Shown here piece by piece: positions 156 through 27,426 of a DNA stretch of 34,420 nt. Each line of letters opens with the position of its first letter. Within the stretch, counting starts at the first letter, position 1. The stretch comes from Pyrinomonadaceae bacterium (GTDB lineage Bacteria; Acidobacteriota; Blastocatellia; Pyrinomonadales; Pyrinomonadaceae), in contig DATENN010000308.1 of the NCBI GenBank assembly GCA_035275045.1, forward strand, positions 1-34,420. Reading direction: 5' to 3'. The translations under genes and the position numbers were made by a program. The notes beneath the pieces are model-generated. The model searched no databases and had not been told where the DNA came from. It saw nothing but the letters and a program-made list of their open reading frames with translations.

Positions 156-345
156 GGAAAAGAGGTCAGAAGTCGGAGGTCAGAGGTCAGAGATCGGAGG
201 TCGGGGTCGAGATCACGGATCAAAGATCGAAAGTCTGAAGCCTGACCTGTGACTTCTGACCTCTGACCTCTGATTTCTGACCTGTGATCTCTGACCTCCG
301 ATCTTTGACTTCCGCCTTCTGTCTTTCTGTCTTCTGTCTTTCAAA
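156..345. repeat. inverted array of tandem heptanucleotide repeats (locus A)
   Basis: The left arm (~160..240) is a run of aggtcag/aagtcgg/agatcgg units. The right arm (~241..345) is a run of tctgacc/tgtgact/tctgatt/tccgatc units, about 25 heptads in total. The arms are reverse complements of each other, for example gacctccgatct shared in complement. The array fills the whole lspA-lgt spacer and overlaps the lspA 3' end. Confidence 0.85.
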
Positions 346-846
346 AAGTAAATCGAACGCCAACAACAGCGCACCAATCGTGATGCTCGCGTCGGCAATG
401 TTGAAATTGGGCCAGTGATACGACCGAGCGTGCAGCACGATGAAGTCAATGACGTAGCCTAGCCGAAGCCGATCAGTTAAGTTCCCCGCAATTCCCGCCA
501 GCAACAGCGCGCAGGCGCCGAGCACCCGATCGTCATTACGAGGCGTGCGCGCAAAGTAATAGAGCACTGCAAGCGCTGCGATGATTGCAAGCACAATAAA
601 AAACCAGCGCCCAAATGCGCCGCCTTCCTGAAGCTGTCCGAAGGCGATGCCTGGATTTTCGGTGTACACGAGATCAAGAAAGCCCTGAACAATGGTGCGG
701 CCCGGCTGAAATCTCAAGGTCTTCACGGCCCACGCCTTGGTTACCTGGTCCATCAGGTAAACGCCGGCGCCCGCCAGCAGATAACCGGCACGCCACCCAA
801 GCCGGGTTCGGGCGGTCGCTTGTAAGTTCTGGTCATTAATGCTCAT
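220..846 (-). CDS. lspA: lipoprotein signal peptidase II
   Basis: 208-aa ORF with the LspA pattern: DQVTKAW, NPGIAFG, GNLTDRL, VIDF, FNIADASI. It sits downstream of ileS, the classic ileS-lspA pairing. The last ~40 aa (ERQKTERQKAEVKDRRSEITGQKSEVRGQKSQVRLQTFDL) are encoded by the heptad repeat. Confidence 0.9.
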   Translation of the reverse strand: MSINDQNLQATARTRLGWRAGYLLAGAGVYLMDQVTKAWAVKTLRFQPGRTIVQGFLDLVYTENPGIAFGQLQEGGAFGRWFFIVLAIIAALAVLYYFARTPRNDDRVLGACALLLAGIAGNLTDRLRLGYVIDFIVLHARSYHWPNFNIADASITIGALLLAFDLLFERQKTERQKAEVKDRRSEITGQKSEVRGQKSQVRLQTFDL

Positions 847-881
847 GTATTCTCACCGCCCTGCACCGCACCAACGGGTGC

Positions 882-912
882 GTAATGTTTATGGAAATTC
901 TATAAACATTAC
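882..912. other. perfect 11-bp AT-rich hairpin in the ileS-lspA spacer
   Basis: gtaatgtttat (882..892) and ataaacattac (902..912) are exact reverse complements separated by a 9-nt loop. No T-run follows on the transcribed (minus) strand. Confidence 0.5.
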
Positions 913-916
913 GCTC

Positions 917-3871
917 CTAACGAGCTTCCGTCTCAATCTCTTCCAGCGCCGTTACGCAACGTTCGCAAACCGTTGGATAGCGCGCTGACTCGCCAACTAA
1001 CGTCGAGTAGTTCCAACAGCGTTCACACTTCGCGCCTTCAGCAGGTAAAACTTTAACCAGAACGCCATCGACCGCTTCACCCGACCGGACCAAATCAACC
1101 TGGGACACGATAAAGAGATAACGCAGTTCTTCCCGATACTTCGCCAGCAGATCGTAACTTCGGCCGGAGGCTGCAACTTCCACGCGCGCTTCCAACGAGC
1201 TGCCAATGATCTTCGCCACGCGCGCTTCTTCGAGGGATTGCAAGACGTCTTCGCGAATTTCGAACAAGCGGCGCCAGTTGCCAAGTATCTCTTCATCCGG
1301 CATACCAGTCGCTTCGGGAAAGACGCTCATGTGAACCGACAGCGGGCGTTCGCTGTCCGGCGGCAAGTTCTCCCAAATCTCATCCGCTGTGAAAGCGAGC
1401 AGTGGCGCAAGCAAGCGCGCCAGCGTGTCTGCGATCTTAAGCAACACTGTTTGCGCAGCCCGCCGTGAAGGATGGCGCGGCGCAAAGGTGTAGAGACGGT
1501 CCTTCAAAATATCAAAGTACCGCGCCGATAACGTTACCGTGCAGAAGCGATAAAGCGCGTGGTACGCAGTGTGGAATTCATAAATCTCATAAGCAGCGCG
1601 CACGGTGCGCAGTATGTTGTCTAATTCTGCAAGTGCCCAACGATCGATATCGGGCAGTTGAGATTCATCGATCGCGTCGCGTCGCTGGTCGAACCCTGAC
1701 AGATTGCCCAACGCAAAACGCGCAGTGTTGCGCAGCTTGCGATACCCGTCCGTGACACGTTGCAGAATCTCTTTTGATGAACGCATGTCATCAAAATAAT
1801 TCGACGAGGCACACCACAGGCGCAGAATGTCCGCGCCTGATTCTTTGATGACTTCGTCAGGGGGCACCGCGTTCCCGCCCGACTTGTGCATCTCCTTGCC
1901 CTGCGCATCGACAGTCCAACCGTGAGTGATGACAGCTTTATAAGGAGCGCGGTCGTGCGCCGCCAGGCCAACCATCAACGACGAGTTGAACCAGCCGCGA
2001 AATTGATCGCCGCCTTCAAGGTAGACATCGGCCGGCCAACGTAACTCTTCTCGATTTTCCAAAACCGCGATGGATGACGAGCCGCTGTCAAACCAAACAT
2101 CGAGAATGTCGGTTTCCTTGGTCCATTCCGCAGCGCCGCACCCGCCGCAGGTAAAACCTTCGGGCAACAATTCGCGGGCTTCTTTGGTGTACCAGGCATC
2201 GGCGGACTCTCGTTCAAAGATATCGGCGACATGATTGATCACCGCTGGTTCGGCAACGGCTTCGCTGCACTGTGCGCAGTAGAACACGGGAATCGACACA
2301 CCCCACACGCGTTGCCGCGAAACGCACCAGTCCGGGCGCCCTTTCAACATGTTGCGCATACGTACTTCGCCCCATGACGGATACCACTTCACACGCTCGA
2401 TCTCGCGCAGTGCGGCGGCACGCAGCGTCGTCTCGCCCTCGGAAAAATTTTCAGTAAAATTGCTGCGGTCGCGTCCATCCTCATCTGTTTCGGTCTCCAC
2501 CACAGCGGCGACGGCCTGGTCCATGGAAATGAACCACTGCGGAGTCGCACGAAAGATGACAGGATTCTTGCAACGCCAGCAGTGTGGATAGCGATGGCTG
2601 TATGGCTCAGTAAAGAGCAAAACGCTACGCTCTCGCATGAATTCAACAATCTTCGGGTTCGCTTCAAACACGCTTTGGCCGGCAAAATATTCCACCTCGG
2701 GTGTGAAGTGACCCGCGTTATCGACCGGACAATAAATATCCAGACCATAGCGCTTGCCGATCACAAAATCGTCGTGACCGTGACCAGGGGCCGTATGTAC
2801 ACAGCCGGTGCCGGCTTTGCTTGAGTTCGATTTTTCGCGCGCGTCTTTTACATCCAGTTCCGTTTCCGCATCAGCCTCGCCACCCAGCGTTACGTGTTCA
2901 CCAACCATCAGCAGCGAGGGCCGGTCCAGCCACGCGTGTCGGCATTCAAGGCGATCCAGTTTTGCCCCGGGAAAGCGAGCGAGAACCTTCGTATCTCTCG
3001 ACGACAGCTCGCACTTGTCGATCACCGCGTCGAGTAATTCAGCGGCAACGATGTACACCTCCTCGCCGTTTTCGAACGCGACGTACTGGTAATCGGGATG
3101 AACACTGATGCCAAGATTTGCCGGCAGCGTCCACGGTGTAGTGGTCCATATGAGAACGAAAACCTGACGGCCGGCAAGCGCCGGATCGATAAGGACTGGA
3201 TCGCTCGCGAGGGGAAACTTGACGTAGACAGACGGACTCGTGTGTTGATGATATTCAACTTCCGCTTCGGCGAGCGCCGTTTGATCGTGAATACACCAGT
3301 AAACCGGACGCGCGCCCTTGTAAACATAGCCGCGCTCAACGAAGCGACCAAACAAACGTGCGGTTTCTGCTTCGTAGTGATTCGACATTGTTAGATAGGG
3401 ATTGTCCCACTGGCCCAAAATCCCGAGCCGCTGAAAGTCGCGCGTTTGCCTCTTCAACGCTTGCGCGGCGTGCTCGCGACAGGCGCGGCGGATCGCCACG
3501 GCAGGCATGTTTGCTTTTTTTGCTCCAAGCTTGCGGTCGACGTACAACTCGATCGGCAAGCCATGGCAGTCGTAACCGGGCACGTAAGGCGCGTCGTAAC
3601 CCATCATGCTGCGCGATTTCACCACGAAGTCTTTCAGAATCTTATTCATCGCCGTGCCAAGATGAATGTCCGCATTCGCGTAGGGTGGTCCATCGTGCAG
3701 GATGAACTTCTCTTTTCCGGCGCGCGTCTTGCGAATCTCCTCATAAAGATTCGCCTCTGACCATTTTTTCAGACGCGCGGGTTCGCTCTGCGCCAGATTC
3801 GCTTTTTGCGAAAATCCGGTTTTTGGCAGGTTGATGGTCTTCTTAAGATCGAGCGGTGTTTCGGTGGACAT
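917..3871 (-). CDS. ileS: isoleucine--tRNA ligase
   Basis: 984-aa ORF with a HIGH-type motif ([12 protein letters not shown]), a KMSKS-type motif (KEMHKSGGN) and C-terminal CxxC zinc-knuckle pairs (CERCWNY..CERC). ATG at 3869..3871. Confidence 0.95.
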
Positions 3872-3952
3872 ATTTCGTGTTTGTCAGAATTGCCAATACT
3901 AACAGCAGAGTTGTTGAGTCATCAAAACAGGCGCCGAGCGCACTTCATAAAG

Positions 3953-3996
3953 TAAAACCCGAACCAACTTCCGCGTGGATGATGGTCCGGGTTTGA
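3953..3996 (-). terminator. candidate intrinsic terminator after the DUF948 gene
   Basis: On the minus strand the sequence reads aaacccggacc-(18 nt)-ggttcgggtttt followed by actttat. This is a GC-rich stem plus a U-run about 20 nt after the stop at 4016. Confidence 0.6.
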
Positions 3997-4015
3997 ATTA
4001 GCAATTTCGCTGCAA

Positions 4016-4582
4016 TCAACCGATGAACAACTCATCCTCTCCGTAGGTTTGGTTGATGGGCTTAGGCAGCGGCGCTACGAGCACTTCGAGGCCGCGGCGA
4101 AAGCCCGCCATAATTGCGGCTATTTCCCGCGCCGGTTCGACGACGCGCCGTTGAATAAACTCAGTCGTAGTAGCAATTTGATCGTGGGTACGATCGATGG
4201 TGCGGCTGACAAGTTCAACTTTATCGCGCGCTTCGACCGCGGTTTCGCTGACCAGTTCTTTCAACTCGCCCACTTCACCTTTGATGATAGCCAGCGATTC
4301 CGACAGGTTCATGGTCGCAGTTGAAAGATGGCCGGACACCGCGTTGAACTGTTCGGCAATCTGCTTACCCTGGACCGCGATCTGCTTACCTTGTTCGCTG
4401 ATCACAGTAACTCGATCGATCAGCGGTTCCAACCTTTGCTCTAACCGCGTTACCGAACGCACGGCGCGGTTGACGAAGACGGCAATTGCAATCATGGCAA
4501 CCGCGATGATGATAAAAGACAAAGCAATTACCACCATCACCCAGAACATGGGATCGTTAATGTTCATTTGCAAGGCAAGCAT
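4016..4582 (-). CDS. DUF948-like membrane-anchored coiled-coil protein
   Basis: It has an N-terminal TM helix (FWVMVVIALSFIIIAVAMIAIAVFV) followed by a long helical region. It pairs with a YtxH-like gene, as is common. The family assignment is from memory of DUF948 architecture. Confidence 0.6.
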   Translation of the reverse strand: MLALQMNINDPMFWVMVVIALSFIIIAVAMIAIAVFVNRAVRSVTRLEQRLEPLIDRVTVISEQGKQIAVQGKQIAEQFNAVSGHLSTATMNLSESLAIIKGEVGELKELVSETAVEARDKVELVSRTIDRTHDQIATTTEFIQRRVVEPAREIAAIMAGFRRGLEVLVAPLPKPINQTYGEDELFIG

Positions 4583-4593
4583 CTCTTATGATT

Positions 4594-4657
4594 TCCGACT
4601 GCCGATTGCCGAATTTCCCGTCCCATCGAACGCCAATTGGCAATCCGAATCGACAAT
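4594..4657. repeat. imperfect hairpin with heptad-periodic arms (locus H, GCCGATT type)
   Basis: tccgact gccgatt gccgaat faces attggca atccgaa tcgacaa. About 13 of 14 positions pair between gattgccgaatt and aattggcaatc. It lies in the spacer between the ytxH-like gene and the DUF948 gene. Confidence 0.45.
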
Positions 4658-4661
4658 GTTC

Positions 4662-5129
4662 CTAGTTCGCTTTTTCAGTGTACTTCGGCGCGGCGTCCAA
4701 TCTTCCTGACATTTCCGTTTTGCGTTTTTCTTCCTGATACGCCTTCTTGCCTGCGTCGATCGCGGCGGCGACGGTGCTCGTTTGGCGCGAAGCACTATCG
4801 CGGGCAGTTTGCGCTACCTCGCTGACCTTGCTTGAGGCCTGGGTGTACAAATCAGACGCGCGCTCACTGGCCTGCGAGTAAAGCTCCGAAGCTCGTTCAC
4901 GCCCGGCGTCATAATACTCGCCGGCTCGTTCACCTAATTGCTGAGCAGCTTCGCGCGACTTGTCAATTCCTTTGCGTGTAGCGTCCGCGATGTCGCCGCG
5001 AAGTTCCTGACCCGACTTAGGCGCGAACAGCAGCGCGATAACTGCGCCGATTCCGCCACCGATCAAAAGGTACGTCAGTCGCGTCGAGACGCTGTCGCCA
5101 GAGTCACGTCGATAATCATCGTTTGCCAT
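4662..5129 (-). CDS. YtxH domain-containing protein
   Basis: It carries the hallmark LIGGGIGAVIALLFAPKSGQELRGDI followed by a helical A/E/R/S-rich region. The ATG at 5127..5129 is preferred because AAGGA lies 7 nt upstream. The track ORF extends to 5249. Confidence 0.8.
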   Translation of the reverse strand: MANDDYRRDSGDSVSTRLTYLLIGGGIGAVIALLFAPKSGQELRGDIADATRKGIDKSREAAQQLGERAGEYYDAGRERASELYSQASERASDLYTQASSKVSEVAQTARDSASRQTSTVAAAIDAGKKAYQEEKRKTEMSGRLDAAPKYTEKAN

Positions 5130-5205
5130 AATTAGATCCTTTCTGGGAAACCATGGCCTTCGAATCGGGCCATTTTGCGTTATTAATTGGAGTTTTCTGA
5201 ACCGG

Positions 5206-5235
5206 ACTATAGCAAACGTTTGCGAAACGGCGCAA
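5206..5235 (-). promoter_or_regulatory. candidate sigma-70 promoter with an embedded palindrome upstream of the ytxH-like gene
   Basis: The minus strand reads TTGCGC-(18 nt)-TATAGT. The spacer contains the perfect 12-bp palindrome GCAAACGTTTGC (5212..5223), which abuts the -10 element. Confidence 0.35.
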
Positions 5236-5279
5236 GAAATGTGGGCCATTCAGCGGCAGGGAGGCGGCTCCTCACTGAT

Positions 5280-7400
5280 CTACTCGCTGTTTCCGCCGCC
5301 GTTGTACTGATCCAGCTTTCGGTAAAGCGTCTTGCGCCCAATGCCCAACGCTTTGGCCGCGTGCGTTTTATCGCCCTGGGTGTAATCGAGGGTCGCCTCG
5401 ATCGCTTGCCGTTCAATCTCGTCCATCGAAGAAGGCACGGTTACTTCAAACGTAGTCGTTCTTCCTTCACTAGCGGCCCGGGCGCGCTCCACCTTGATTC
5501 GATCCTGTTCCTGCAACACGATCTTGCTTATTGCTTCCGGCAAGTCTTCGAGTTCGATCTGGCGTCCGGACGCGATGATCACTGCGCGCTCGATCGCGTT
5601 TTCCAATTCCCGCACATTGCCGGGCCAGTCGTAAGTGATCAGAGCCTGCAGTGCATCTTTGGAAATTCCTGAAATAAAACGACCCGTCTTTTGTTTGTAA
5701 TGCTCGAGGAAGTGTATGACGAGCGGATGAATGTCCTGCGCGCGTTCACGCAACGGTGGCAAAGCGATCGGGAACACAGACAAGCGATAAAAAAGATCGC
5801 GCCGGAAAGTTCCATCCTCGATGGCTCGCTCGAGATCGACATTTGAGGCCGCGATGATGCGCACATCGGCTTTGACGACTTCACTGCCGCCAACCCGAGT
5901 GAACTCGCCATCCTGCAACACGCGCAACAAACGCACCTGTGCCGACAAACTCATCTCGCCGACTTCATCGAGAAAGAGAGTGCCGCCGTTTGCTTCTTCA
6001 AAACGGCCCTGCCGCCGTGCCCGCGCGTCAGTGAATGCGCCCTTCTCGTGTCCAAAGAGTTCCGACTCAAGCAAAGTCTCGGGAATCGCGCCGCAGTTCA
6101 ATTTTACATAGGGTTGATCTTCGCGGCCCGAGTTGTAATGAATAAGATTCGCCAGCAATTCCTTCCCGGTACCCGACTCTCCCTGAATCAGAACGGTCGT
6201 CTGCGTATCAGCGACACTCAGCGCCAGCTCGATGGCTCGGCGAATCGCAGGCGTCTGGCCGATCAGACGATCTTCGCCATAGCGTTCATGCAGTGCATCG
6301 CGCAGGTGCATCACTTCGGCGGAAAGTTGATCGCGTTCGAGCGCGGTCCCGATTTGATCGGCGATGCCTTCGACGAGTGCCACTTCGTGATCCTGAAACC
6401 CCTGACGCGCATCGCTCCACACTAAGCCAAGCAAACCGAAGGTGTGACCGGCGACGCGTACCGGAGCCACCAGTGCCGCGCGTCCACCAAGGATCGAATT
6501 GAACATCAAACGAAACGGAAACGGGAGATCACTGTCGAGTAATCGCAGCGTTTTGCCTTCAGCCAAAACTTCAATAGCCGCCGGAAACTCGGTTAAATCG
6601 AGCGACTGCGCGTGTTCTTCAATTAGACCTTGGACTGAATCTGTGCTCGCATGCGGCGCCGCTTTGAAAGCCACCAGGCTAATCTTTCCACCCTTCCGAT
6701 CGAGCACGCCGAGTGCGGAATAGTCCGCGCCGACCAGGGTGATCGCGCGTTCCAGCACCAGGGACGATACCTCGCGAAAATCAGAACGCGCATTAATCGC
6801 ATTCGCGATCTCGAGCAACGCTCGCTTGGTTTCAGCTTCACGCTCCTTGTCGGAATACAGCCGCGTGTACTGATAGCCCACACCGATTTGTCGCGCGATC
6901 GATTCCAAAAACGCGACTTCATCATCAAGCCACACGCGTAACGATCGCGTGGTATGCATGCCCACCAGGCCAAGTACGTCATCGCCGAGTACAACCGGCA
7001 CCACCAACAGCGACCGTGTGCCCAAACCTTTTGCCAGCATGCGCACCTTCTGATCCAGGTCAGGCGCCGAGGTGTCGTCAAGGCGGATCGGCCGCGTCAG
7101 ATCGACGTTCTCAGCTAGTTGTCGCATGTCGATGGGGATGGCAGTTCCGAGGCTCGACGGAACGTCGTCCGAAGCGCGCCATTCGTGACTAATTCGCAGC
7201 TCGCTGGGCGAAGTTAACTGGATAACGTCGCAACGATCGACATTCATCATCCGTCCAAGTTCGGAGACGATCACGGTTAGAAAACGATCGAGATTAATGG
7301 CGGAAGGCAGCGTCAACGCGAGGCGATTAATAATGCCTTCGCGCGCCTCGTGCATTTTGATCTTACGCTCGAGCGAGAGAGATTGGGCGGTGTCTGACAT
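5280..7400 (-). CDS. sigma-54-dependent transcriptional activator (GAF-GAF-AAA+-Fis HTH)
   Basis: 706 aa. The N-terminal half is GAF-like. The AAA+ core carries Walker [30 protein letters not shown] and an RVGG-type segment. The C-terminus is a Fis-type HTH ([16 protein letters not shown]). Confidence 0.9.
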
Positions 7401-7539: not shown

Positions 7540-7545
7540 CTTTGT

Positions 7546-13584: not shown

Positions 13585-13750
13585 CATAGAATTCAGGAAA
13601 CGGAATACAGAAGTCAGGAGGCAGAATTCAGAAGTCAGAATTAGAATTCAGAATTATTCAGAATACGAAGACTGTAGCGCCTGATTGTAAAAACGGCTCC
13701 GAACGGATCGGATTTCTGACCGCGGATCGCTGACTTCTGACTTCTGCTTT
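13585..13750. repeat. asymmetric inverted array of heptad repeats (locus B)
   Basis: The long arm (13588..13672) is built of cagaagt/cagaatt/caggagg units and includes several GAATTC sites. The short opposing arm (13710..13748) reads ttctgac..cgctgac ttctgac ttctgc. It lies between the DUF2270 stop and the hutH start. Confidence 0.75.
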
Positions 13751-14868: not shown

Positions 14869-15381
14869 ATGACTGCGCTAGCGCAAAGCGAAACTGACAC
14901 GCACTGGATGCGCCAGGCCCTGAGCGCGGCGCGCGAAGCGCAACAGCGCGGCGAAGTGCCAATCGGCACTTGTATCGTGAGTCGAGACGCGCAGTTGATT
15001 GCTGTCGCCGGCAACCGCACGCGTACCGATAACGATCCAACCGGACACTCTGAAATTATTGCATTGCGCGCGGCGGCAAGAGCGATTGGCAACTATCGCC
15101 TGGTTAGCGCAACTGTTTATTCTACGATCGAGCCGTGTGCGATGTGCGCGGGTGCTCTGATTCAAGCGCGCGTGCAACGCCTGGTCTACGGAGCTCCCGA
15201 TGAACGCGCCGGCGCAGTCAAGTCCCGCTTTCGGGTTTGCGATACAGATTTTTTGAATCATCGCATCGATGTTTCAACAGGCGTTCTGGAAGAAGAGTGC
15301 CGCGCCCTCGTGCAGGACTTTTTTCGCAGCCGGCGGGATGAAACAACGGCTGAGCAAGCAAGGCTGAGCAATGAGGGCTGA
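14869..15381 (+). CDS. tadA: tRNA adenosine(34) deaminase
   Basis: It carries the CDA-fold zinc motifs HSEIIALR and PCAMCAGAL, and the size and order are typical of TadA. The last ~12 codons lie in a GCTGAG-type repeat. Confidence 0.9.
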   Translation: MTALAQSETDTHWMRQALSAAREAQQRGEVPIGTCIVSRDAQLIAVAGNRTRTDNDPTGHSEIIALRAAARAIGNYRLVSATVYSTIEPCAMCAGALIQARVQRLVYGAPDERAGAVKSRFRVCDTDFLNHRIDVSTGVLEEECRALVQDFFRSRRDETTAEQARLSNEG

Positions 15382-15426
15382 GTGGATTAGGGATTTAAGA
15401 ATAAACTTTTTCTCATTGCTCAGCAC
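15345..15426. repeat. GGCTGAG-repeat hairpin spanning the tadA stop (locus I)
   Basis: ggctgag occurs three times (15346..15385). gctgagcaatgag (15363..15375) and ctcattgctcagc (15412..15424) are exact reverse complements (13 bp). The loop contains the tadA stop codon, and the hairpin ends 10 nt before tRNA-Ser. Confidence 0.75.
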
Positions 15427-15434: not shown

Positions 15435-15524
<90 letters not shown>

Positions 15525-15530: not shown

Positions 15531-15606
15531 GCAGATGTCAGAGATCAGATATCAGAGGCCAGCAAAGACGGTTTCTGATCTCTGACATCTGACATCTGAC
15601 ATCTGT
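15531..15606. repeat. heptad-repeat hairpin between the two tRNA-Ser genes (locus C)
   Basis: cagatgtcagagatcaga (15532..15549) is the exact reverse complement of tctgatctctgacatctg (15574..15591), an 18-bp perfect stem. The right arm continues as a tctgaca run of 3 units. Confidence 0.9.
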
Positions 15607-15611: not shown

Positions 15612-15701
15612 GGAGAGGTGCAGGAGTGGTTGAACTGGCAGCACTGGAAATGCTGTGAACGGGAAACCGTTCCGTGGGTTCGAATCCCACCCTCTCCGCC
15701 A
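15612..15701 (+). tRNA. tRNA-Ser (anticodon GGA)
   Basis: It has the same acceptor and T-arm as the first tRNA-Ser. The anticodon stem is cagca/tgctg with loop cuGGAaa. It has a long variable arm and an encoded CCA. Confidence 0.93.
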
Positions 15702-15713: not shown

Positions 15714-15778
15714 CTCAGAGGTCAGATGTCCAGAGGTCAGCAAGACGTTCCGGTCTCTGATATCTGACATGTTTTTTT
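15714..15778 (+). terminator. heptad-repeat hairpin followed by a T7 run (locus D); likely intrinsic terminator of the tadA-tRNA unit
   Basis: ctcagaggtcagatgtccagaggtcagc faces ggtctctgatatctgacatg (imperfect complement) and is followed directly by ttttttt (15772..15778). Confidence 0.6.
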
Positions 15779-16354: not shown

Positions 16355-17959
16355 ATGAAACAGCGCGTTATCGTGTTATTCGTGATCTGCCTGCTGGCTT
16401 ATCCTCTTTCCGCTCAAACGCCAACAACAGCCGACGACTATTACAAGCTGGGCAACGATAGATCTAAAGCTCAGGACCTTGATGCAGCGATTAGCGCGTA
16501 TACAAAAGCAATAGAATTAAATCCGGTCTTCGCAGATGCGTTTATCAGTCGAGGCGTCGCCCGCAGCAGAAAAGGTGATCTTGCGGGCGCCATTTCTGAT
16601 TACGAAAGAGTCATGAGCTTTGCGCCCAGCGAGGTTTTTCCTTATATCAATCGCGGCGGCATAAGGCGTATTCAAGGAGATCTGGACGGAGCACTTGCCG
16701 ACTTTACGAAGTCGATAGAAATAAGCCCTCGACCCATAGCCTACAACGGCCGCGGCCTTATTATGCTGTCAAAGAAGAACGCGGACGCCGCGATCGTCGA
16801 GTTTACAAAGGCTATAGAGATCCTTCCGACATACAGTGAAGCTTACTCCAATCGTGGAGAAGCGAAAGCCATGAAACAGGATCTCGATGCAGCTATGGCC
16901 GACTATGTGAAAGCGATCGAACTCGATCCAAAGAATAAGCGCGCGCATTTTTATCGCGGTCGAATTAACGACGCGAAAGGTGATTTTGACAGCGCCATTC
17001 GTGACTACACCACATATATAGAGCTAGCACCCGCAGAATCCATCGGTTATTTCCGGCGCGGCTTCACGCGTGCTAGCAAAAAAGACACTGATGGCGCCAT
17101 CGCCGATTACAGCAAAGCTATTGCGATCGATCCTCGTGACGCCTTAGCCTATTACAACCGTGGCCTGAGTGAGGAACAGAAGGGAGATTTTGAGGGCGCC
17201 ATCAGCGATTACAGCAAACGCATCGAGCTGCAACCCGAGGAATCGAGCGGCTATTTTCGGCGCGGCTTTGTGCGCGCCAACAAAAAAGACGCCGATGGCG
17301 CCATCGCCGATTTCACCAAAGTAATTGCGATCGATCCGCGTTACGCTGAAGCCTATTACAACCGTGGTCTCAGAATGGAAGAGAAAGGTGATTTTGACAG
17401 CGCCATCAGCGATTACACCAAATATATCGAGCTTCAACCTGAGGACTTTAAAGGTTACGTCCGGCGCGCCTTGGCGCGCTCCAAGAAGAAGGTCGACCTT
17501 GATGCAGCGATTGCAGATTACACCAAAGCTATTGAGGTCAAGCCGAGTTACACACTGACGTACTTCTACCGCGCCCGAGCGCGAGAAGCCAAAGCGGATT
17601 TCGAGGGAGCCGTTGCGGACTATACAAAATACATTGAGATGGAGCCGGCCGATGGCGACGGGCTCAACGGTCTTGCCTGGTTGCTGGCAACTTCAGCCAG
17701 GGATTCAGTGCGCGATGGCGCAAAAGCCGTCGAGTATGCGCGCAAGGCGGCTGAACTGACGAAATGGCAAGATGGCAACACCATCGATACTTTGGCTGCG
17801 GCTTATGCGGAAAGCGGTAATTTCGAGGAAGCCGTTAAGTGGGAAACCAAAGCATTATCCTTTCCGGATTTTGTGAAGGACTCTGGTGATGAAGCACGAA
17901 AGCGGCTTGAGCTTTTCAAAATTCACAAGGCTTATCATGAGCCCCCTCCCGTAAAATGA
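16355..17959 (+). CDS. secreted tetratricopeptide-repeat protein
   Basis: It has a signal peptide followed by about 12 consecutive 34-aa units of the type A..DY.KAIE..P....AY..RG......D...AI. A GAGAGGA SD precedes the ATG. Confidence 0.85.
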   Translation: MKQRVIVLFVICLLAYPLSAQTPTTADDYYKLGNDRSKAQDLDAAISAYTKAIELNPVFADAFISRGVARSRKGDLAGAISDYERVMSFAPSEVFPYINRGGIRRIQGDLDGALADFTKSIEISPRPIAYNGRGLIMLSKKNADAAIVEFTKAIEILPTYSEAYSNRGEAKAMKQDLDAAMADYVKAIELDPKNKRAHFYRGRINDAKGDFDSAIRDYTTYIELAPAESIGYFRRGFTRASKKDTDGAIADYSKAIAIDPRDALAYYNRGLSEEQKGDFEGAISDYSKRIELQPEESSGYFRRGFVRANKKDADGAIADFTKVIAIDPRYAEAYYNRGLRMEEKGDFDSAISDYTKYIELQPEDFKGYVRRALARSKKKVDLDAAIADYTKAIEVKPSYTLTYFYRARAREAKADFEGAVADYTKYIEMEPADGDGLNGLAWLLATSARDSVRDGAKAVEYARKAAELTKWQDGNTIDTLAAAYAESGNFEEAVKWETKALSFPDFVKDSGDEARKRLELFKIHKAYHEPPPVK

Positions 17960-19644: not shown

Positions 19645-19750
19645 GATGGGTTTGACGATCACGCGCGTCTTTGTAGGCACTTGACTCGTTCTTCACTGTT
19701 TGACAATCGGCATTCAGCAATAAAGAATCGAAGCGTTTGACAACTTATCA

Positions 19751-19850
19751 GACTTCGGGCTCCGCACAACGTAGTGCCGGTGAACCCCGCCAGGCCGGGA
19801 ACGGAGCAACGGTAGCCAGGCGCGCGTGTGTTGCGGGTAAGTCCGGAGTC
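19751..19850 (+). ncRNA. ffs: signal recognition particle RNA (small bacterial SRP / 4.5S type)
   Basis: It contains the conserved domain IV sequence GUGAACCCCGCCAGGCCGGGAACGGAGCAACGGUAGCC with a GGAA tetraloop. The 5' end gacuucgggcuccgcacaacg pairs with the 3' end cguguguugcggguaaguccggaguc. It lies immediately upstream of dnaX, a known conserved synteny. The ends are approximate (+/- 10 nt). Confidence 0.85.
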
Positions 19851-19861
19851 TGGCCACATCG

Positions 19862-19950
19862 CAGTGCTGAGTGCTGAGTGCTGAGTACTGAGTCAAATAC
19901 TCAGACTCAAAGTTCTTACTCGGCACTCAGCACTCAGCACTCAGCACTTT
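19862..19950. repeat. heptad-repeat hairpin (TGCTGAG/CTCAGCA type) between ffs and dnaX (locus G)
   Basis: agtgctgagtgctgagtgctgagt (19863..19886) is the exact reverse complement of actcagcactcagcactcagcact (19925..19948), a 24-bp perfect stem. It is followed by tt and then by the dnaX ATG 7 nt later. Confidence 0.9.
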
Positions 19951-19955
19951 TCCGT

Positions 19956-21927: not shown

Positions 21928-23436
21928 CTAGTTATCGTGAATGTCTTGCTCGATCTCCGCTGGCCTGCCTTTAGTCGCGCGTTTATGGATGGGTGAACGG
22001 GCTTTTAATAAGTCCTGGTGGCGCGAACCGATCACATAAGCGAGTCCCTGATAAGTCATACCCAACAATGAAGCCGCATGCGTGACGCTGCCATTCGCCT
22101 GGGCCAACGCCTGGCGCAACAGGCCTGCTTCAAACTTCAAAACCTCAAGCGGAAAACTGCACGACGCATTGAAGACTGTTTCTGTTGCCGCTTCCGGTTT
22201 CAGTTCGCCGCGAATGCCGGCGAAGACTTTTCGCGCGGCATTATTGAGACGCAGCAGAATGTCCTGACTTTGCGACTTGGCCAGCCATTCGCTCGCTCGA
22301 TCGTACGCAGCGTACAGCGTGTCGGTCGGCAGGTCATCCAACTCCTCAATCAAGGTGAGCGCGGCGAGGCCGGCTTTGTTGAGAGCGCCAACCTGATGGC
22401 CCACCTCAATCGCTTTTTGGAAAGTGAATTGGGCGCGCTGGGTTTGCTTAAGACGAGCAATGGCGACGCCGTGGGTGATGAGTGCATCGGCCAGCAGACA
22501 CTGGTGCCCACTTTTTTCAAGCGCGCGCACCGCGCTGCGCGCCACCACCTCGGCTTCTGCGAATTTCTTTTCTGCGATTAGGACCTGCGCGCGCGTATCG
22601 TCGATCTGAGCAACGCCAACTTTGTCCTTCACGCGGATTCTCAACCGACGAGCCTGCTCAAGATATTTGTGGGCTTCGTCGAAACGCTTAAATTCACGAA
22701 GGAGATTGGCAATATTGTTCTTGATATCCGCGCGAAAAACGCTGTTCCGCGCCGTCTTAAAATGCTGATCAGCCTTTTCATAATTTTCAAAAATTTGCGC
22801 GAAATCTTCAGGACGTTTGTCGTTAAGAGTTAGCTCACGAATTACCATTGCCAATTGACTATGATAGGCACCCCGTATTGCATGATTGGTGACCTTCTTA
22901 AAGAGAAACGCGTTGTCTTTTAGGATTCTCAGGGCTTCCCCATAGCGGGCTGCGGACCATTCGACGACAGCTAAGCCTAATAGCCCGTATGCTCGCGTGT
23001 TTCCTTCGGTTGTAAGCTTAGTTAAAGCTTCCGAAAACAGAATGCGGGATTCATCTAGCTTGCCTTCGCGCCAGTAACAGTAAGCTAGTTCAACTTGGGC
23101 TGCTGCTACCTTTCTAACGTCTTTTATGGATTCGTGAAAAGCGATGCTTTCGCAAATGAGGTTTTTTGCTAGTTCATTAGAAGAGTCTCTCTTGTCTTTA
23201 CTTCCAATCCATCTTGTCAAGATTCCTGCGCAAAGTAACACTTCAGCAGCAACTGATGCGTGTAAGCCCTCTGTTATCGGCCGTTGTCCGGGATTCTTCC
23301 AAAATCGTCCCATGACGCTTCGTGCGCCCGCGTAATCACCTTGGTCCTTCATTTCCAATGCCCGTTGACAACGCAGCAATGCTTCTTCGTTGGCGCTTAG
23401 ATGTGTTGCGTTGAGTTTTCGTGAGGTTATCCTCAT
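21928..23436 (-). CDS. TPR-like helical-repeat protein with a C-terminal Fis-type helix-turn-helix (putative transcriptional regulator)
   Basis: 502 aa. Repeated amphipathic helix pairs have TPR-like spacing (AAQVELAYCYWREGKLDESRILFSEAL, ANLLREFKRFDEAHKYLEQARRL, TRAQVLIAEKKFAEAEVVARSAV). The C-terminal LLRQALAQANGSVTHAASLLGMTYQGLAYVI resembles the NtrC/Fis HTH_8. There is no AAA+ or receiver domain. Confidence 0.6.
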   Translation of the reverse strand: MRITSRKLNATHLSANEEALLRCQRALEMKDQGDYAGARSVMGRFWKNPGQRPITEGLHASVAAEVLLCAGILTRWIGSKDKRDSSNELAKNLICESIAFHESIKDVRKVAAAQVELAYCYWREGKLDESRILFSEALTKLTTEGNTRAYGLLGLAVVEWSAARYGEALRILKDNAFLFKKVTNHAIRGAYHSQLAMVIRELTLNDKRPEDFAQIFENYEKADQHFKTARNSVFRADIKNNIANLLREFKRFDEAHKYLEQARRLRIRVKDKVGVAQIDDTRAQVLIAEKKFAEAEVVARSAVRALEKSGHQCLLADALITHGVAIARLKQTQRAQFTFQKAIEVGHQVGALNKAGLAALTLIEELDDLPTDTLYAAYDRASEWLAKSQSQDILLRLNNAARKVFAGIRGELKPEAATETVFNASCSFPLEVLKFEAGLLRQALAQANGSVTHAASLLGMTYQGLAYVIGSRHQDLLKARSPIHKRATKGRPAEIEQDIHDN

Positions 23437-23590
23437 GAGAATCAGACCCTTCTACGTGAGTGTAAGAGAGCTTGCTACCTACGGAGGCGGATATTAGTGC
23501 GCCTCACCCTCACCTTGCAAGAACTTCCTGAAGTTGGTCTATTCTATTTTATGTAAGAAGTCTTGCATCCCACCTTGAAGGAGAAACAAG

Positions 23591-23797
23591 ATGAAACGAT
23601 TACTAATAAGTGCGGTCGCGGTGTGCGCTCTCTCGATGATGACCAAGGCGGGTGACATTCCGTCCGTCGGCGCGCCTCAACCACAGCCGACGGTCGCGTC
23701 AACAACGCCTGGAGAAATTCCATCCGTACCCCGAACCGACCAATTAACAGATAGCTTAATTCTCGCGCTTCTATCTGGTTTGGATCTGGTGCTCTAA
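23591..23797 (+). CDS. small secreted peptide (68 aa) with a duplicated G(D/E)IPSV motif
   Basis: A strong SD (AAGGAG) lies 8 nt upstream of the ATG. It has a Sec-type signal peptide MKRLLISAVAVCALSMMTKA. The mature part is GDIPSVGAPQPQPTVASTTPGEIPSVPRTDQLTDSLILALLSGLDLVL. It is divergent from the TPR-HTH gene. Confidence 0.6.
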   Translation: MKRLLISAVAVCALSMMTKAGDIPSVGAPQPQPTVASTTPGEIPSVPRTDQLTDSLILALLSGLDLVL

Positions 23798-24168
23798 ACG
23801 AGAACGCATCGGTGATGTTGCTGTATGCGAGTGGTGTGGGCTCCGCTGAGAAATTTAAGCTCGCAAAACTCACCCTAACATTTCCGATTCGCTCTTAACG
23901 GGGTCGCGCACAACTCAACCTCAATTAGCAGCCTCACGGCGGCAGGGATTTGTGTGCTTAACGGTAACCCAACGAGCGAAACTCAGGCGTGCTTGAGCAG
24001 CATTAGGATTGAAGTCGGTGGCCGTTCCTAATTCCAGCGAACCGAAGTGGCTGGAGCTTATATGGATACGTTTCAAAACCTGGTACGCGGCACCTGTATC
24101 TCGCCAAGTCTTTTTGGTGAACAAAATCGCGCCGCGCGTCGTAATGAACTGCGCTCGGAGGTTAAATC

Positions 24169-24378
24169 ATGCGCGATCCATTCACGGCAGGCCTGTTAAG
24201 TTTCATCATTCCCGGCGTGGGCCAACTGTACAACGGCCGCATCCTGGCCGGCATTTTCTGGCTCATTATCACGCCCGGCTTTTGGATCGGCTCTGGCGGC
24301 ACGCTCGGCTGGATTTGTCACGTCATCGCTGCTTACACGGCATACTCGTTCGCGAAATACCACCCGGTGCGGGCCTAG
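24169..24378 (+). CDS. small membrane protein (TM2-like PGxGQxYNG motif)
   Basis: 69 aa with GGAGG 8 nt upstream of the ATG, the motif LLSFIIPGVGQLYNGR and two TM helices. Confidence 0.6.
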   Translation: MRDPFTAGLLSFIIPGVGQLYNGRILAGIFWLIITPGFWIGSGGTLGWICHVIAAYTAYSFAKYHPVRA

Positions 24379-24438
24379 GATGTAGCGCAAACTGACGCTT
24401 GCGGATACGTCTGCGCGCTCTACGCGCGCCCATTAGCT

Positions 24439-24507
24439 GCGAAACTTACACAGACTAAAGTCTGTGCCACGCGGCGAAACTTACACAGACTAAAGTCTGT
24501 GCCACGC
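24439..24507. repeat. perfect tandem direct repeat (2 x 34 bp, 35-bp period), each unit carrying the ACAGACTAAAGTCTGT palindrome
   Basis: gcgaaacttacacagactaaagtctgtgccacgc occurs at 24439..24472 and again at 24474..24507, about 90 nt upstream of the zwf ATG. Confidence 0.9.
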
Positions 24508-24598
24508 TCGTGCTATCCTTGCTTTCATCGTCACCAACGACACACAAACAGCGGCCGAACAAACGGGCGAGCCGGCAACAAATCCCTTGCGCGCGGGC

Positions 24599-26095
24599 AT
24601 GCGTCTCGAGCGTGTAGCGCCGTCGTGTGTTGTCGTAATCTTTGGCGCCACCGGAGACCTGACGCGCCGCAAACTTCTGCCCGCGCTCTATCGTTTAACG
24701 CAACAACAATTGATACCAGCGGAGTTCGCGATCCTGGGCACCGCGCGGCAGCCGCTCAGCGACGACGAGTTTCGCGCGCAAATGCAACAGGCGATTCAGG
24801 AGTTTGCCAGCGAAGATCAGTTTGACGAAAAAGCCTGGCAAAGTTTTGCCAAGCGCCTTTTCTATTTGCCCGGAGAGTTCGCGGACGCCGGGCTCTATCA
24901 AAAGATAAAAACGAAACTGGGCGAGATCGACAAAGATTGCAGCACGCGCGGCAATCATTTGTTCTATCTCGCTACTGCGCCGGAATTTTTCGGCGTCGTG
25001 GCCACGAAATTAGGCGAAGCGAAGCTCGCAAAACCGCAAGACGATGCCTGGACGCGCATCATCGTTGAAAAACCGTTCGGGCACGATCTCGCGAGCGCGC
25101 AAAAACTGAATCAGGAGCTGGCTACGGTTTTTGAAGAGAAGCAGATCTATCGCATCGATCACTATCTCGGGAAAGAGACGGTGCAGAACCTGCTGGTATT
25201 TCGTTTTGCGAACAGCATTTTTGAGCCGCTTTGGAACCGGCAGTACATCGATCACATTCAGATCACGAATGCAGAAGCGATCGGCGTCGAGGGACGCGGC
25301 GCGTATTACGAAAAGGCCGGCGCGCTGCGCGATATGATCCAGAACCACGTGTTTCAGGTGACCTCCTTGATTGCGATGGAGCCGCCCGCTTCTTTATCTG
25401 CGAACGGTGTGCGCGATGAAAAGATCAAGGCAATGCAGTCGGTGCGGCCGTTGCCGGCAGAGAAAATCGATAAGTTTGCTGTGCGCGGCCAGTATGGACC
25501 AGGAACAGTTTTAGGCGACACGGTTCCGGGTTACCGTCAGGAACCCGGCGTCGATCCGAATTCTTCGACGGCAACGTTTGCCGCCCTCAAACTTCAGTTC
25601 GACAACTGGCGCTGGGCGGGCGTGCCTTTCTATCTGCGCTCAGGCAAGCGTTTGCAAAAGCACATCACTGAAATCGCGATCGAGTTCAAGGGCGTGCCGC
25701 ATCGGCTGTTCACTGATGCCGATGCGCCACTGCAGCGCAACGTGCTCGTAATTCGCATTCAGCCCAACGAGGGCATCACGCTGCGGTTCGGCGCGAAGCT
25801 GCCCGGACAGGCGATGCGCATTCGTTCGGTCAACATGGATTTTCGTTATGGCTCATCTTTTGGCGTGAAGCCGCCAGAGGCATATGAGCGTTTGTTGCTC
25901 GATTGCATGCTCGGGGATTCGACGCTGTACGCGCGCCGCGATATGGTCGAGCGCGGTTGGGAAATCGTGGCACCGATCATCGATGCATGGGAAAAACCCG
26001 CGACTGATTTTCCGAATTACGAGGCCGGCTCGTGGGGACCATCGGCGGCCGCCGAATTATTAAGTCGGGACGGCAGAAAGTGGCGAAGGCTTTGA
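24599..26095 (+). CDS. zwf: glucose-6-phosphate dehydrogenase
   Basis: It carries the NADP motif GATGDLTRRKLLPALY, the active-site motif RIDHYLGKE and the usual C-terminal WGP...A..LL. The ATG at 24599 is preferred over the TTG at 24587. Confidence 0.95.
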   Translation: MRLERVAPSCVVVIFGATGDLTRRKLLPALYRLTQQQLIPAEFAILGTARQPLSDDEFRAQMQQAIQEFASEDQFDEKAWQSFAKRLFYLPGEFADAGLYQKIKTKLGEIDKDCSTRGNHLFYLATAPEFFGVVATKLGEAKLAKPQDDAWTRIIVEKPFGHDLASAQKLNQELATVFEEKQIYRIDHYLGKETVQNLLVFRFANSIFEPLWNRQYIDHIQITNAEAIGVEGRGAYYEKAGALRDMIQNHVFQVTSLIAMEPPASLSANGVRDEKIKAMQSVRPLPAEKIDKFAVRGQYGPGTVLGDTVPGYRQEPGVDPNSSTATFAALKLQFDNWRWAGVPFYLRSGKRLQKHITEIAIEFKGVPHRLFTDADAPLQRNVLVIRIQPNEGITLRFGAKLPGQAMRIRSVNMDFRYGSSFGVKPPEAYERLLLDCMLGDSTLYARRDMVERGWEIVAPIIDAWEKPATDFPNYEAGSWGPSAAAELLSRDGRKWRRL

Positions 26096-26227
26096 AGTCA
26101 GAGGTCAGATGTCGGATGTCAGATTTCAGAGACAGAGAACAGAGATCCAGAGATCAGAAGTCAGACGTCAAGATCAGAGCATGTGTTATATCTGAATCTG
26201 GCCTCTGACCTCTGACATCTGACATCC
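26094..26227. repeat. heptad-repeat inverted array filling the zwf-opcA spacer (locus E)
   Basis: The long left arm is built of gtcagag/gtcagat/gtcggat/cagagac/cagagat units (26096..26180). The short right arm reads tctgaat ctggcc tctgacc tctgaca tctgaca (26191..26226). About 18-25 bp can pair, for example ggatgtcagat.tcagag. Confidence 0.85.
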
Positions 26228-26235
26228 GTTTGCTT

Positions 26236-27393
26236 ATGCAGCAAATTTCACTCGGAAAAACCTTGGACATCGAGGTCGTTGAACGCGAACTCGCTTCGCT
26301 TTGGCACGTAGTTGAACCTGCGCCCAACGAACGCGCAGCCGCCGCGGATGCCGACGAAGTTGAAAGCCCCGTGTTGCGCGCGCGCGCCGCGAACCTGCTG
26401 GTGTACGTTGCGAACCAAACCACACTCGCCGAAGTTCATCAGCTATTGCCAGAGTTAACTGCGACGCATCCCAGTCGCGTACTCGCTATTTTCGGCGACG
26501 ACCCTGCCCCGGACCAGGACATTGAAATGTATGTCGCTGCGTTCTCACAGCAGGAGAAAGGCCCGAAGCGTTTGTGTTGCGAAGAGGTGACACTAAAAGC
26601 CCAAGGTTCGTTCATAAGCGAACTGCCCAGCGCTGCACTGCCTCTGTTGGTTTCCGATTTGCCCACGTTTCTTTGGTGGCGTGCAAGCCTCGGCGCACAA
26701 CGGCGAGTCTTCGACAGTTTGTTCCACGCGGCCGATCGTTTGATCATTGACTCTGTAGAATTTGCGCAACCCATCGCTGAACTGAAAGCGGTGAACAACC
26801 TCTATGCGAAACAACCTGAAGTCGGAATCAGTGATCTTAATTGGGCGCGTTTGACCTCGTGGCGAGGACTGCTCGCAGATTTTTATGATGTCGCCGCCTA
26901 TCAAAGCGGACTGAACGCAATCGATCACGTCAGCATCCATTATGTTTCGCCAAAAGCAGATGCAGACGCCATTGCGCCGCAAGCATTGTTGATGGCCGGC
27001 TGGCTGGCGAGCCGGCTGAAATGGACCATAAGCGAAAGTTCTTCGGCTAAGCGAAAGCAGGAACAAATTTCCTTCGAATTCCACACCGCCGCACAACGTT
27101 CGATTACCGTTGAGCTGGTCCGCGTCAGCGAATCATCAATCAGACCGGGCAGATTGGCTCTGGTTGAACTGCGCGCGCCTGACGAGATTAGTTTCGGTGT
27201 AGAGCGCAGCAAAGATGGGCAACTTGTAATCGCAGAGGCAAAACTCGGCGGCGGCGTCCAACGTGGGCGCGTGTTACCAGTTCGCAATCGCAGTACCGCA
27301 CAACTGCTGACGCGCGAAATGGAAATTCTCTGCAACGATCGGATTTATCAGGAAGCTCTTGTTGTGGCAGCGACTATGATCGAAAAACTCTGA
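26236..27393 (+). CDS. opcA: glucose-6-phosphate dehydrogenase assembly protein OpcA
   Basis: It lies directly after zwf. The N-terminal LDIEVVERELASLWH and RARAANLLVYV fit the OpcA pattern as I recall it. The length (~385 aa) is typical. Confidence 0.75.
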   Translation: MQQISLGKTLDIEVVERELASLWHVVEPAPNERAAAADADEVESPVLRARAANLLVYVANQTTLAEVHQLLPELTATHPSRVLAIFGDDPAPDQDIEMYVAAFSQQEKGPKRLCCEEVTLKAQGSFISELPSAALPLLVSDLPTFLWWRASLGAQRRVFDSLFHAADRLIIDSVEFAQPIAELKAVNNLYAKQPEVGISDLNWARLTSWRGLLADFYDVAAYQSGLNAIDHVSIHYVSPKADADAIAPQALLMAGWLASRLKWTISESSSAKRKQEQISFEFHTAAQRSITVELVRVSESSIRPGRLALVELRAPDEISFGVERSKDGQLVIAEAKLGGGVQRGRVLPVRNRSTAQLLTREMEILCNDRIYQEALVVAATMIEKL

Positions 27394-27401
27394 CGACTCA
27401 C

Positions 27402-27426
27402 AGGTCACCGTTCTCTGTCCTCTGTT
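27402..27426. repeat. single-arm heptad run (tctctgt cctctgt tctctat) in the convergent opcA / propeller spacer (locus F)
   Basis: It is the near reverse complement of cagagacagagaacagaga inside locus E (26131..26149). No local partner arm was seen. Confidence 0.5.

Follow-up and report, generated by a model that had tools for sequence, protein, structure and literature searches.

The 34,420-nt stretch of Pyrinomonadaceae DNA studied here (the window), the initial part of a 39,523-nt metagenome contig assembled with MEGAHIT (ENA ERZ27257050:k141_2162728), harbours a dispersed family of tandem heptanucleotide arrays that are set as inverted pairs between genes and fold into long hairpins. Eight dispersed repeat loci were identified in 34 kb, and their core hexamers were enriched 6-7 fold in non-coding DNA. 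We lean towards reading these elements as slippage-built RNA stem-loops marking the boundaries of transcripts and cistrons, on the strength of their sequence, position and comparison with relatives. An earlier inspection of the letters alone (the original prediction) had proposed a family of hairpins with heptad arms, and its locus letters are retained here. The family was strong at loci A, B, C, D, E and G; H was weak although conserved in a relative (L005), I proved to be a hairpin of another periodicity, and F formed no hairpin.

Tandem Repeats Finder (TRF) assigned period 7 to the arrays at A, H, B, C, G and E and period 14 to that at I, and revealed 21-nt super-repeats at A and B. In a lag scan period 7 gave seven strict runs, as opposed to zero for periods 4-6 and 8-12. 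The non-coding share of the window is 12.4%, and within it lay 12 of the 17 copies of GTCAGA (p=4e-8) and 13 of the 16 copies of TCTGAC (p=6e-10), which bears out the predicted preference for spacers. As first noted, the unit sequences vary among the loci and the construction is constant. All TCTGAC-type loci (A, B, C, D and E) had the inverted-pair form.

The two arm orientations co-occurred locally as facing pairs, as anticipated. The pair at A measured 71 nt with 72% complementarity, that at B 33 nt with 76% and that at E 24 nt with 88%; the core of C (34 nt, 82%) is exact over 18 nt, and in the fold of G (31 nt, 94%) 24 pairs are consecutive. The exact stems reported originally, 18 bp at C, 24 bp at G and at least 13 bp at I, were thus reproduced, the last as a stem of 15 bp. 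When folded as RNA on both strands, every locus was far more stable than its dinucleotide shuffles (z-scores -2.2 to -10.5): A -5.5/-7.5, B -3.4/-3.5, C -5.8/-7.4 and D -2.2/-3.3 on the two strands. The scores were -10 (G), -4.1 (E) and -4.7 (I), and H scored -2.9 on the gene strand. The folding free energy (dG) was -82 to -93 for locus A and -57 for locus G. Stability was equal on the two strands of the window loci, and strand bias of folding gave no clue to the transcribed strand. Permuting the heptads within the 3′ arm did not weaken the fold, and the observed fold was no better than the permuted ones. The arms can therefore pair in any register, as had been suggested for registers shifted by one unit, and stem length can consequently change without compensatory point mutations. 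A search of the hairpin loci against Rfam returned no family at gathering score and only sub-threshold matches of A, C and G to generic miRNA-precursor hairpin models. No stop codon interrupts the GTCAGAN arm in any of the three reading frames, whereas the NTCTGAC arm brings in a TGA within 21 nt whichever frame is read.

The concern that the arrays are artefacts of assembly is unlikely to be justified, since the same architecture recurs in contigs of Mb size, in the complete genome CP120722.1 and in genomes of isolates. No copy-number polymorphism was seen between L004 and L005, which are 100% identical over 14 kb, and no heptad locus was found on a second contig of the same strain. Here and below, labels of this type denote comparison loci fetched from relatives and other genomes.

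All strong loci were located between co-directional genes or beside the genes of the signal recognition particle (SRP) RNA and tRNA-Ser, where they occupied approximately 60-95% of the gap between the neighbours, and no divergent spacer of the window contained one. The original prediction overstated their frequency in placing one in nearly every longer spacer: strong heptad hairpins were present in 5 of the 17 spacers of at least 100 nt. Loci E and B begin at the upstream stop codon, and the loci end 0-22 nt ahead of the next start codon. Among the 74 heptad hairpins of all fetched loci, the distance from stop codon to array had a median of 2 nt and fell between -10 and +15 nt in 55%. Many heptad hairpins stop 0-10 nt short of an ATG, with only a pyrimidine-rich linker between.

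Locus A (156..345) separates lspA from lgt, both on the minus strand, and was found by TRF with periods 7 and 21 and inverted arms. Its 5′ arm (AGAGGTC)n spans approximately 161-216, a degenerate centre follows, and the 3′ arm (CTGACCT)n at approximately 242-311 continues in a CTTCTGT tail to 342. The minus-strand 3′ end of the locus, CUCUUUUCC, lies immediately ahead of the lgt ATG (156-154). The lspA reading frame (minus strand, 220-345) meets no stop codon before the array and acquires a tail of 40 residues, ERQKTERQKAEVKDRRSEITGQKSEVRGQKSQVRLQTFDL, from the purine-rich arm; the Peptidase_A8 domain of LspA stops at residue 168 of 208. Locus B (13585..13750) fills the gap between a DUF2270 gene and hutH, also both on the minus strand, and was recovered both by TRF and as an inverted repeat. 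It begins at the DUF2270 stop codon (13751) and consists of a 5′ arm (AGAAKTC)n at 13588-13664 and a 3′ arm (CTGACTT)n at 13714-13750. Locus E (26094..26228, plus strand) occupies the zwf/opcA spacer from the zwf TGA (26093-26095) to 8 nt ahead of the opcA ATG (26236), with 12 and 5.4 copies by TRF in an inverted repeat whose arms are (GTCAGAG)n at 26097-26179 and (ATCTGAC)n at 26190-26228. An extension of the Zwf C-terminus by this array was ruled out, the stop codon being at the same place in relatives.

The remaining strong loci accompany RNA genes on the plus strand that the original prediction had missed: what it took for spacers around I, C, D and G does carry the repeats and also contains two tRNA-Ser genes and the SRP RNA gene. 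The gene for tRNA-Ser(CGA) (15435..15524; Rfam 60.5 bits, also called by ARAGORN) is flanked by loci I and C, and that for tRNA-Ser(GGA) (15612..15701; Rfam 55.4 bits, ARAGORN) by loci C and D. Locus C (15531..15606; TRF 3.6 copies at 100%) is a (GTCAGAN)n/(NTCTGAC)n hairpin with an exact 18-nt inverted repeat, occupying the gap between the two. Locus D (15714..15778) follows the pair with a GTCAGA/TCTGA hairpin at 15715-15767 and seven T at 15772-15778, and from its sequence and fold has the form of an intrinsic terminator. The SRP RNA gene ffs (19753..19851) matched Rfam RF00169 at full length with 63.9 bits, and a promoter scan placed a promoter-like site TTGACA-17-AAGAAT ahead of it at 19700-19728. 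Locus G (19862..19952) begins 11 nt past ffs and ends approximately 5 nt ahead of the dnaX ATG (19956); it is built as (GCTGAGT)4/(ACTCAGC)4, with 4.4 copies at 95% per arm by TRF and TTTT after the stem.

The three weaker loci deviated from this pattern. Locus H (4594..4657), between the YtxH gene and hyp188, both on the minus strand, is a weak (GATTGCC)/(GGCAATC) hairpin with 3.3 copies by TRF. Locus I (15345..15426, plus strand) stands as a hairpin with a 15-bp stem (15363-15377/15410-15424), and not as a heptad array: TRF gave period 14, the 14-nt repeat being GGCTGAGCAAGCAA, and its 5′ arm lies within the 3′ end of tadA, the locus overlapping the tadA stop codon. Its end is 9 nt from tRNA-Ser(CGA). 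Locus F (27402..27426) comprises three TYCTCTG units with a lag-7 score of 16 of 21 in a 40-nt convergent spacer between opcA and a BNR gene; it has no inverted partner, hence no hairpin, and its membership is doubtful. One more array of heptads, (ACCTGAG)n/(TCTTGAG)n, was observed outside the window at 38653-38701 of the public record (L002).

The arms have a fixed order. Every TCTGAC-type locus of the window reads 5′-(GTCAGAN)n ... (NTCTGAC)n-3′, and the purine-rich arm was the 5′ arm in 65 of the 74 heptad hairpins (p=1e-11). An exact GTCAGA partner of a TCTGAC array was found on its 5′ side 35 times and on its 3′ side 3 times, divided into 20 vs 1 in genomes and 15 vs 2 in viral contigs; a viral scan of the whole collection yielded four hairpins in the observed arrangement and none reversed, which fits in direction although the numbers are small. 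An inverted repeat is its own reverse complement, so that the polarity is the same on both strands and is a property of the locus, not of the choice of strand. Each transcript thus receives a C/U-rich 3′ arm, like the stems of terminators. Reversed polarity was observed in the ffs/dnaX hairpins of L341 (approximately 1900-1957) and L342 (approximately 1080-1125), which carry no T-run and whose 3′ arm is promoter-like (TTGAAA-17-TAAAAT) and ends 5-6 nt ahead of the dnaX ATG; judged from its sequence, such an arm would give a leaderless dnaX mRNA. Leaderless promoters in the 3′ arms were rejected as a general explanation: no -10-like element was present ahead of lgt, opcA and dnaX of the window, and L341 and L342 were the only possible cases.

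Runs of T followed a subset of the hairpins. TTTT was present at the 3′ end of 15 of the 74 (approximately 20%) vs 4.7% in the background, as counted from the array ends, the outermost pair of the minimum free energy fold being unreliable since the fold extends into the flanks. In the window D has seven T, G has TTTT, and no more than 3-4 T are seen at A, B, C and E. A simple scan for canonical terminators showed no enrichment over shuffles (33 vs 27.5±5.7; 24 vs 21.8±4.1). The heptad hairpins escape such a scan, as their loops exceed 8 nt. One ordinary GC-rich terminator, AAACCCGGACC...GGTTCGGGTTTT, was noted on the minus strand at approximately 3945-3990, after hyp188; it is conserved in L005, which indicates that the organism also employs canonical terminators.

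In divergent spacers, 4 of 51 heptad hairpins were found vs 18% expected (p=0.035), a modest depletion, and no depletion was seen for all period-7 array clusters; both analyses rest on crude calls of open reading frames (ORFs).

Close relatives picked solely via DnaX (178 kb) contained 32 period-7 runs and at most two at any other period, which makes heptad arrays a hallmark of the lineage; 13 period-7 runs were counted in 478 kb of distant lineages. Many different heptad units were present in each of the close relatives. The order ffs-dnaX and the tRNA-Ser pair were syntenic, and in ten lineages the same succession was found: ffs, 5-9 nt, a long hairpin, 0-8 nt and the dnaX ATG. The SRP RNA was approximately 95-100% identical among these lineages and the hairpin was unalignable, with the unit TGAGTGC in the window and TGAGTGA, TGAAGGA, GAAAAGT, CGTAAAT, TGCGATT and others elsewhere. 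The consensus units of the two arms were exact reverse complements in about half of the lineages and differed by one base in most others. The zwf/opcA spacer held heptad hairpins of four unit types in four lineages (the window, L005, L006 and L325), and in a fifth (L007) it measured 40 nt and held only a 14-nt palindrome. Hairpins with other units were likewise found at the site of locus B between the DUF2270 gene and hutH (L006, L335 and L344) and at the flanks of the tRNA-Ser genes, and L005 carried the unit of locus H in the same spacer. At ffs/dnaX of L353 and at DUF2270/hutH of L327 a hairpin was present, though not clearly built of heptads. These orthologous sites show that position and architecture are conserved while the sequence turns over.

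In relatives the unit of locus H, as (CAATCGG)n, also separates the -35 from the -10 element of the SRP RNA promoter (e.g. TCGACA-17-TAAAAT), at 9742-9773 of L335, 432-463 of L341, 9768-9802 of L344 and upstream of ffs in L353. Heptads build promoter spacers too, and not hairpins alone.

Beyond the lineage, a search for three exact NTCTGAC units, with one genome per species, found at least 119 stretches vs approximately 17 expected by chance, the latter being our own estimate from the size of the whole collection. The matches listed spread over about a dozen phyla, and such arrays occurred in viral contigs too; the hosts include Acidobacteriota, Verrucomicrobiota, Planctomycetota, Gemmatimonadota, Bacteroidota, Nitrospirota, Kiritimatiellota (a complete genome) and the cyanobacteria Nostoc, Okeania, Moorena and Crocosphaera. 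Folded examples from these other phyla displayed stop codon, hairpin and start codon in the same sequence. Viral contigs contained at least 120 NTCTGAC stretches vs 37 and 41 for two composition-matched control heptads. The IMG/VR viral contigs L175, L140 and L146 carried many NTCTGAC arrays (L175, for instance, gave 9 matches over 13 kb), a part of which form hairpins with the polarity seen elsewhere; these contigs may come from genuine phages that infect heptad-rich hosts, or may be bacterial sequence classified wrongly.

The elements resemble the STRRs (short, tandemly repeated repetitive elements) of cyanobacteria in having 7-bp tandem units in many dispersed and mostly intergenic copies, with several unit types per genome, and in the hairpins between operon genes, to which A, B and E between co-directional genes (z -3.4 to -7.5) correspond. 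The classical STRR1-3 units are CCCCAGT, TTGGTCA and CAACAGT, and no tandem copy of these was present on either strand of the window. In contrast to the filamentous or heterocystous cyanobacteria that host STRRs, the present host is a soil acidobacterium: the best homologues of its Zwf, at 87% identity, belong to metagenome-assembled genomes of Pyrinomonadaceae (Acidobacteriota, class Blastocatellia), in agreement with the view that the gene content is not cyanobacterial. The window also encodes a sigma-54 activator, and sigma-54 is not known to occur in cyanobacteria. Another difference is that in the window the inverted-pair form is the rule, each of the five TCTGAC-type loci having it. Arrays of NTCTGAC and hairpins that resemble those of the window are nevertheless also present in cyanobacteria, namely Nostoc flagelliforme (L039), Prochloraceae (L074), Okeania and Moorena. 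Polarity, flush placement between stop and start codons and association with ffs and tRNA genes are, to our knowledge and from an incomplete check of the literature, undescribed for STRRs.

STRRs had been named originally as the closest known thing, rightly so, and as simple tandem runs, which was mistaken: hairpin-forming STRRs of 7 bp are described as "not unusual in filamentous cyanobacteria", with the hupS-hupL gap of four species as an example (PMC2670836). Their function was unknown, and transcript stability, translational coupling or termination were suggested (PMC2670836). The hairpin architecture was therefore already known. The elements described here are filed with the heptanucleotide-repeat kind, and not as cyanobacterial STRRs in the strict sense; the novel aspects are their occurrence in this host phylum, the units themselves, the recurrence of NTCTGAC across phyla, the rule of polarity, the position flush with stop and start codons, and conservation of the sites adjacent to ffs and tRNA genes.

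Other known systems are further removed. Heptanucleotide repeats are reportedly found in helix P12 of cyanobacterial RNase P RNA, as Vioque is said to have described in 1997, and, in the account of Costa et al. in 2002, reportedly also in P6b of the Nostoc tRNA-Leu(UAA) intron. In these cases heptads in both arms reportedly lengthen the helix and its size follows the number of repeats, as here; those repeats lie inside functional RNAs, whereas those of the window lie between genes. Intrinsic terminators share with D and G the stem-loop with a T-run after tRNA and SRP RNA genes and the G-rich 5′ and C/U-rich 3′ arms. They differ in that the window stems are 2-5 times longer than usual, most are without a proper U-tract and several end 0-8 nt ahead of a start codon in apparent operons. 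Clustered regularly interspaced short palindromic repeats (CRISPR) were rejected, as they had been from the outset: the 7-nt units are head to tail without spacers and the arms are inverted, whereas CRISPR consists of repeats of 24-48 nt with unique spacers.

In the reading that we favour, arrays of the STRR type set as inverted pairs on the Pyrinomonadaceae chromosome would each give a long stem-loop of approximately 20-60 bp in a transcribed gap, between co-directional genes, between tRNA genes or 3′ of a stable RNA gene. Slippage by 7 nt would lengthen, shorten and homogenise the arms, and periodic arms that pair in any register would leave the stem length free to vary without compensatory point mutations. 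The elements would act at the RNA level as boundary elements, transcription through them being itself an assumption. Some may be intrinsic terminators or attenuators: D with its seven T and G with TTTT after ffs look like terminators of the tRNA and SRP RNA genes, by their sequence and place. A, B and E are probably not efficient terminators, since the next gene follows within 0-22 nt and leaves no room for a promoter; they may instead be partial terminators or attenuators, barriers to 3′ exonucleases, RNase III sites, or elements that couple or insulate the translation of neighbouring cistrons. A role in RNA rather than DNA is suggested by several features: the elements are placed in transcribed gaps, a hairpin is kept at fixed sites, the 3′ arm is C/U-rich, a T-run follows some of the hairpins, and spacers that hold promoters only are depleted of them. 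The sequence data favour boundary elements in RNA over protein-binding arrays or phase-variable DNA. The original prediction had listed such roles without narrowing them, and the fixed polarity and the stop-to-start extent had escaped it.

Several observations weigh against this reading. A T-run follows only about 20% of the hairpins, and ordinary terminators are also used by the organism, e.g. after hyp188. An efficient stop 0-8 nt before lgt, opcA and dnaX would strip these genes of their promoter, so that most hairpins can hardly be strong terminators. The folds are equally stable on both strands, with no G:U asymmetry hinting at a constraint on RNA, and the permutation of heptads within an arm reveals no position-by-position covariation; the match between the arms could stem from gene conversion instead of selection. 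Simple one-armed heptad arrays are not depleted in divergent spacers. One family, AGTTTCA/TGAAACT, which includes the zwf/opcA hairpin of L325, has the opposite polarity and supplies most of the exceptions. The period of 7 and the recurrence of NTCTGAC across phyla are left unaccounted for.

The main rival, to which we attach a smaller yet substantial probability, draws on several of the same observations. It holds that the arrays are neutral by-products of frequent 7-nt slippage which create the very spacers they fill and have no function, the inverted layout and the matching arms having arisen by inverted duplication and gene conversion between the arms. The missing covariation among units, the absent strand bias in folding and the undepleted simple arrays agree with it. 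So do the highly variable lengths and units, orthologous spacers without a hairpin such as the 40-nt zwf/opcA gap of L007, the approximately 85% of NTCTGAC arrays elsewhere that have no exact inverted partner, and the extension of arrays into reading frames with no evident damage (e.g. the LspA tail); the flush position at stop codons is expected if the array itself made the spacer. However, the polarity (65 of 74; 35 vs 3) has no obvious mutational cause, both arrangements being strand-symmetric, and the ffs/dnaX site holds a hairpin in 10 of 10 lineages despite the turnover of units, even if it is not clearly heptad-built in every one. The enrichment of T-runs at the 3′ ends and the depletion of hairpins in divergent spacers likewise weigh against neutrality.

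Insertion after genes of mobile or copied elements, similar to repetitive extragenic palindromic (REP) sequences, their paired form (REPIN) or miniature inverted-repeat transposable elements (MITEs), by a transposase or an enzyme like the REP-associated tyrosine transposase (RAYT) acting in trans, is improbable in our view. REPs are imperfect palindromes of 20-40 nt that carry a GTAG head, have a sequence fixed for the species and are tied to RAYT transposases, and their roles include stabilisation of mRNA 3′ ends and attenuation. Like REPs, bacterial interspersed mosaic elements (BIMEs) and REPINs, the window elements are dispersed intergenic hairpins, often within operons and directly past stop codons. 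Units are moreover reused within a genome (TCTGAC at A-E; AAGGATG at the ffs and tRNA sites of L335; GATGAGT at two sites of L325), and NTCTGAC arrays are found in viral contigs too. Unlike REPs, they have periodic 7-nt arms in many unrelated unit sequences within each genome, with no fixed element sequence, common element, defined ends or target-site duplications; the original prediction was thus correct in setting them apart from classical REPs. The units change gradually at orthologous sites (TGAGTGC vs TGAGTGA), as evolution in situ would give, the "empty" site of L007 holds a short palindrome and is not a clean empty site, and no Y1 (RAYT-type) or other transposase domain was detected among the window ORFs searched (contig of 39.5 kb). 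MITEs in particular were rejected for the lack of defined ends, duplications and clean insertions and for the graded change of size and unit at orthologous sites.

Least probable is an action at the DNA level, in which the arrays would be bound by a protein (a regulator or a factor of the nucleoid or of replication) or would serve phase variation through changes in spacing: it could draw on the (CAATCGG)n between the -35 and -10 elements of ffs promoters in relatives, on CTGACA being one mismatch off the -35 hexamer TTGACA, and on three heptads making 21 bp or two helical turns, with 21-nt super-repeats at A and B, but wholly different units at the same site in different lineages would be intolerable for a sequence-specific binding protein, no strong window locus lies in a divergent promoter spacer, tandem binding sites need neither polarity nor a hairpin layout, and besides the LspA tail no array interrupts an ORF in a switchable manner.

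A bolder extension of the boundary-element reading, which on present sequence evidence we consider unlikely, is that GTCAGAN/NTCTGAC hairpins of fixed polarity form a sequence-specific class of transcript boundaries across phyla (Acidobacteriota, Verrucomicrobiota, Planctomycetota, Gemmatimonadota, Bacteroidota, Cyanobacteria, Kiritimatiellota and viral contigs), read by conserved machinery and tuned in units of 7 nt. The readers would be RNA polymerase with termination factors, RNase III or the ribosome, and the hairpins would replace classical terminators or intercistronic signals in lineages with few Shine-Dalgarno sequences. Of the 28 genes called in the window, only hyp68, hyp69 and the gene of the 989-aa LTD protein (3 in all) have a recognisable Shine-Dalgarno sequence at most 15 nt from the start codon.

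The window otherwise carries chromosomal housekeeping genes, including ileS, lspA, lgt, hutHU, dnaX, zwf-opcA, the sigma-54 activator and genes of tetratricopeptide repeat (TPR) proteins, and some repeats of other kinds. Upstream of zwf (24439-24507), a 35-nt unit, GCGAAACTTACACAGACTAAAGTCTGTGCCACGCG, which contains the palindrome ACAGACT-AA-AGTCTGT, is perfectly repeated in tandem, with two copies in the window vs three in the public record of the same contig, and the two records are therefore offset by 35 nt downstream; the repeat may be an operator array or reflect a copy-number ambiguity of the assembly. The gene of a 534-aa TPR protein contains an internal 204-nt tandem repeat at 16975-17534 (68 aa, two TPR units; 2.7 copies, 76% identity). 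Inverted repeats of 20 nt that are not built of heptads were noted between the RNase H and LTD-protein genes (30150-30194; 95% complementary, 5-nt loop) and between ileS and lspA (877-917; 90% complementary, 1-nt loop).

For annotation, the arrays cause spurious extensions of ORFs such as the LspA tail, mask tRNA and SRP RNA genes in apparent spacers and are liable to copy-number errors in short-read assemblies. Elements of this kind abound in Acidobacteria and occur in about a dozen phyla. What has been a curiosity of heptanucleotide STRRs becomes a testable hypothesis, that of slippage-tunable RNA boundary elements, for which ffs/dnaX and zwf/opcA offer a natural allelic series. Should the cross-phylum reading be true, it would supply a function for the STRR repeats known since 1990.

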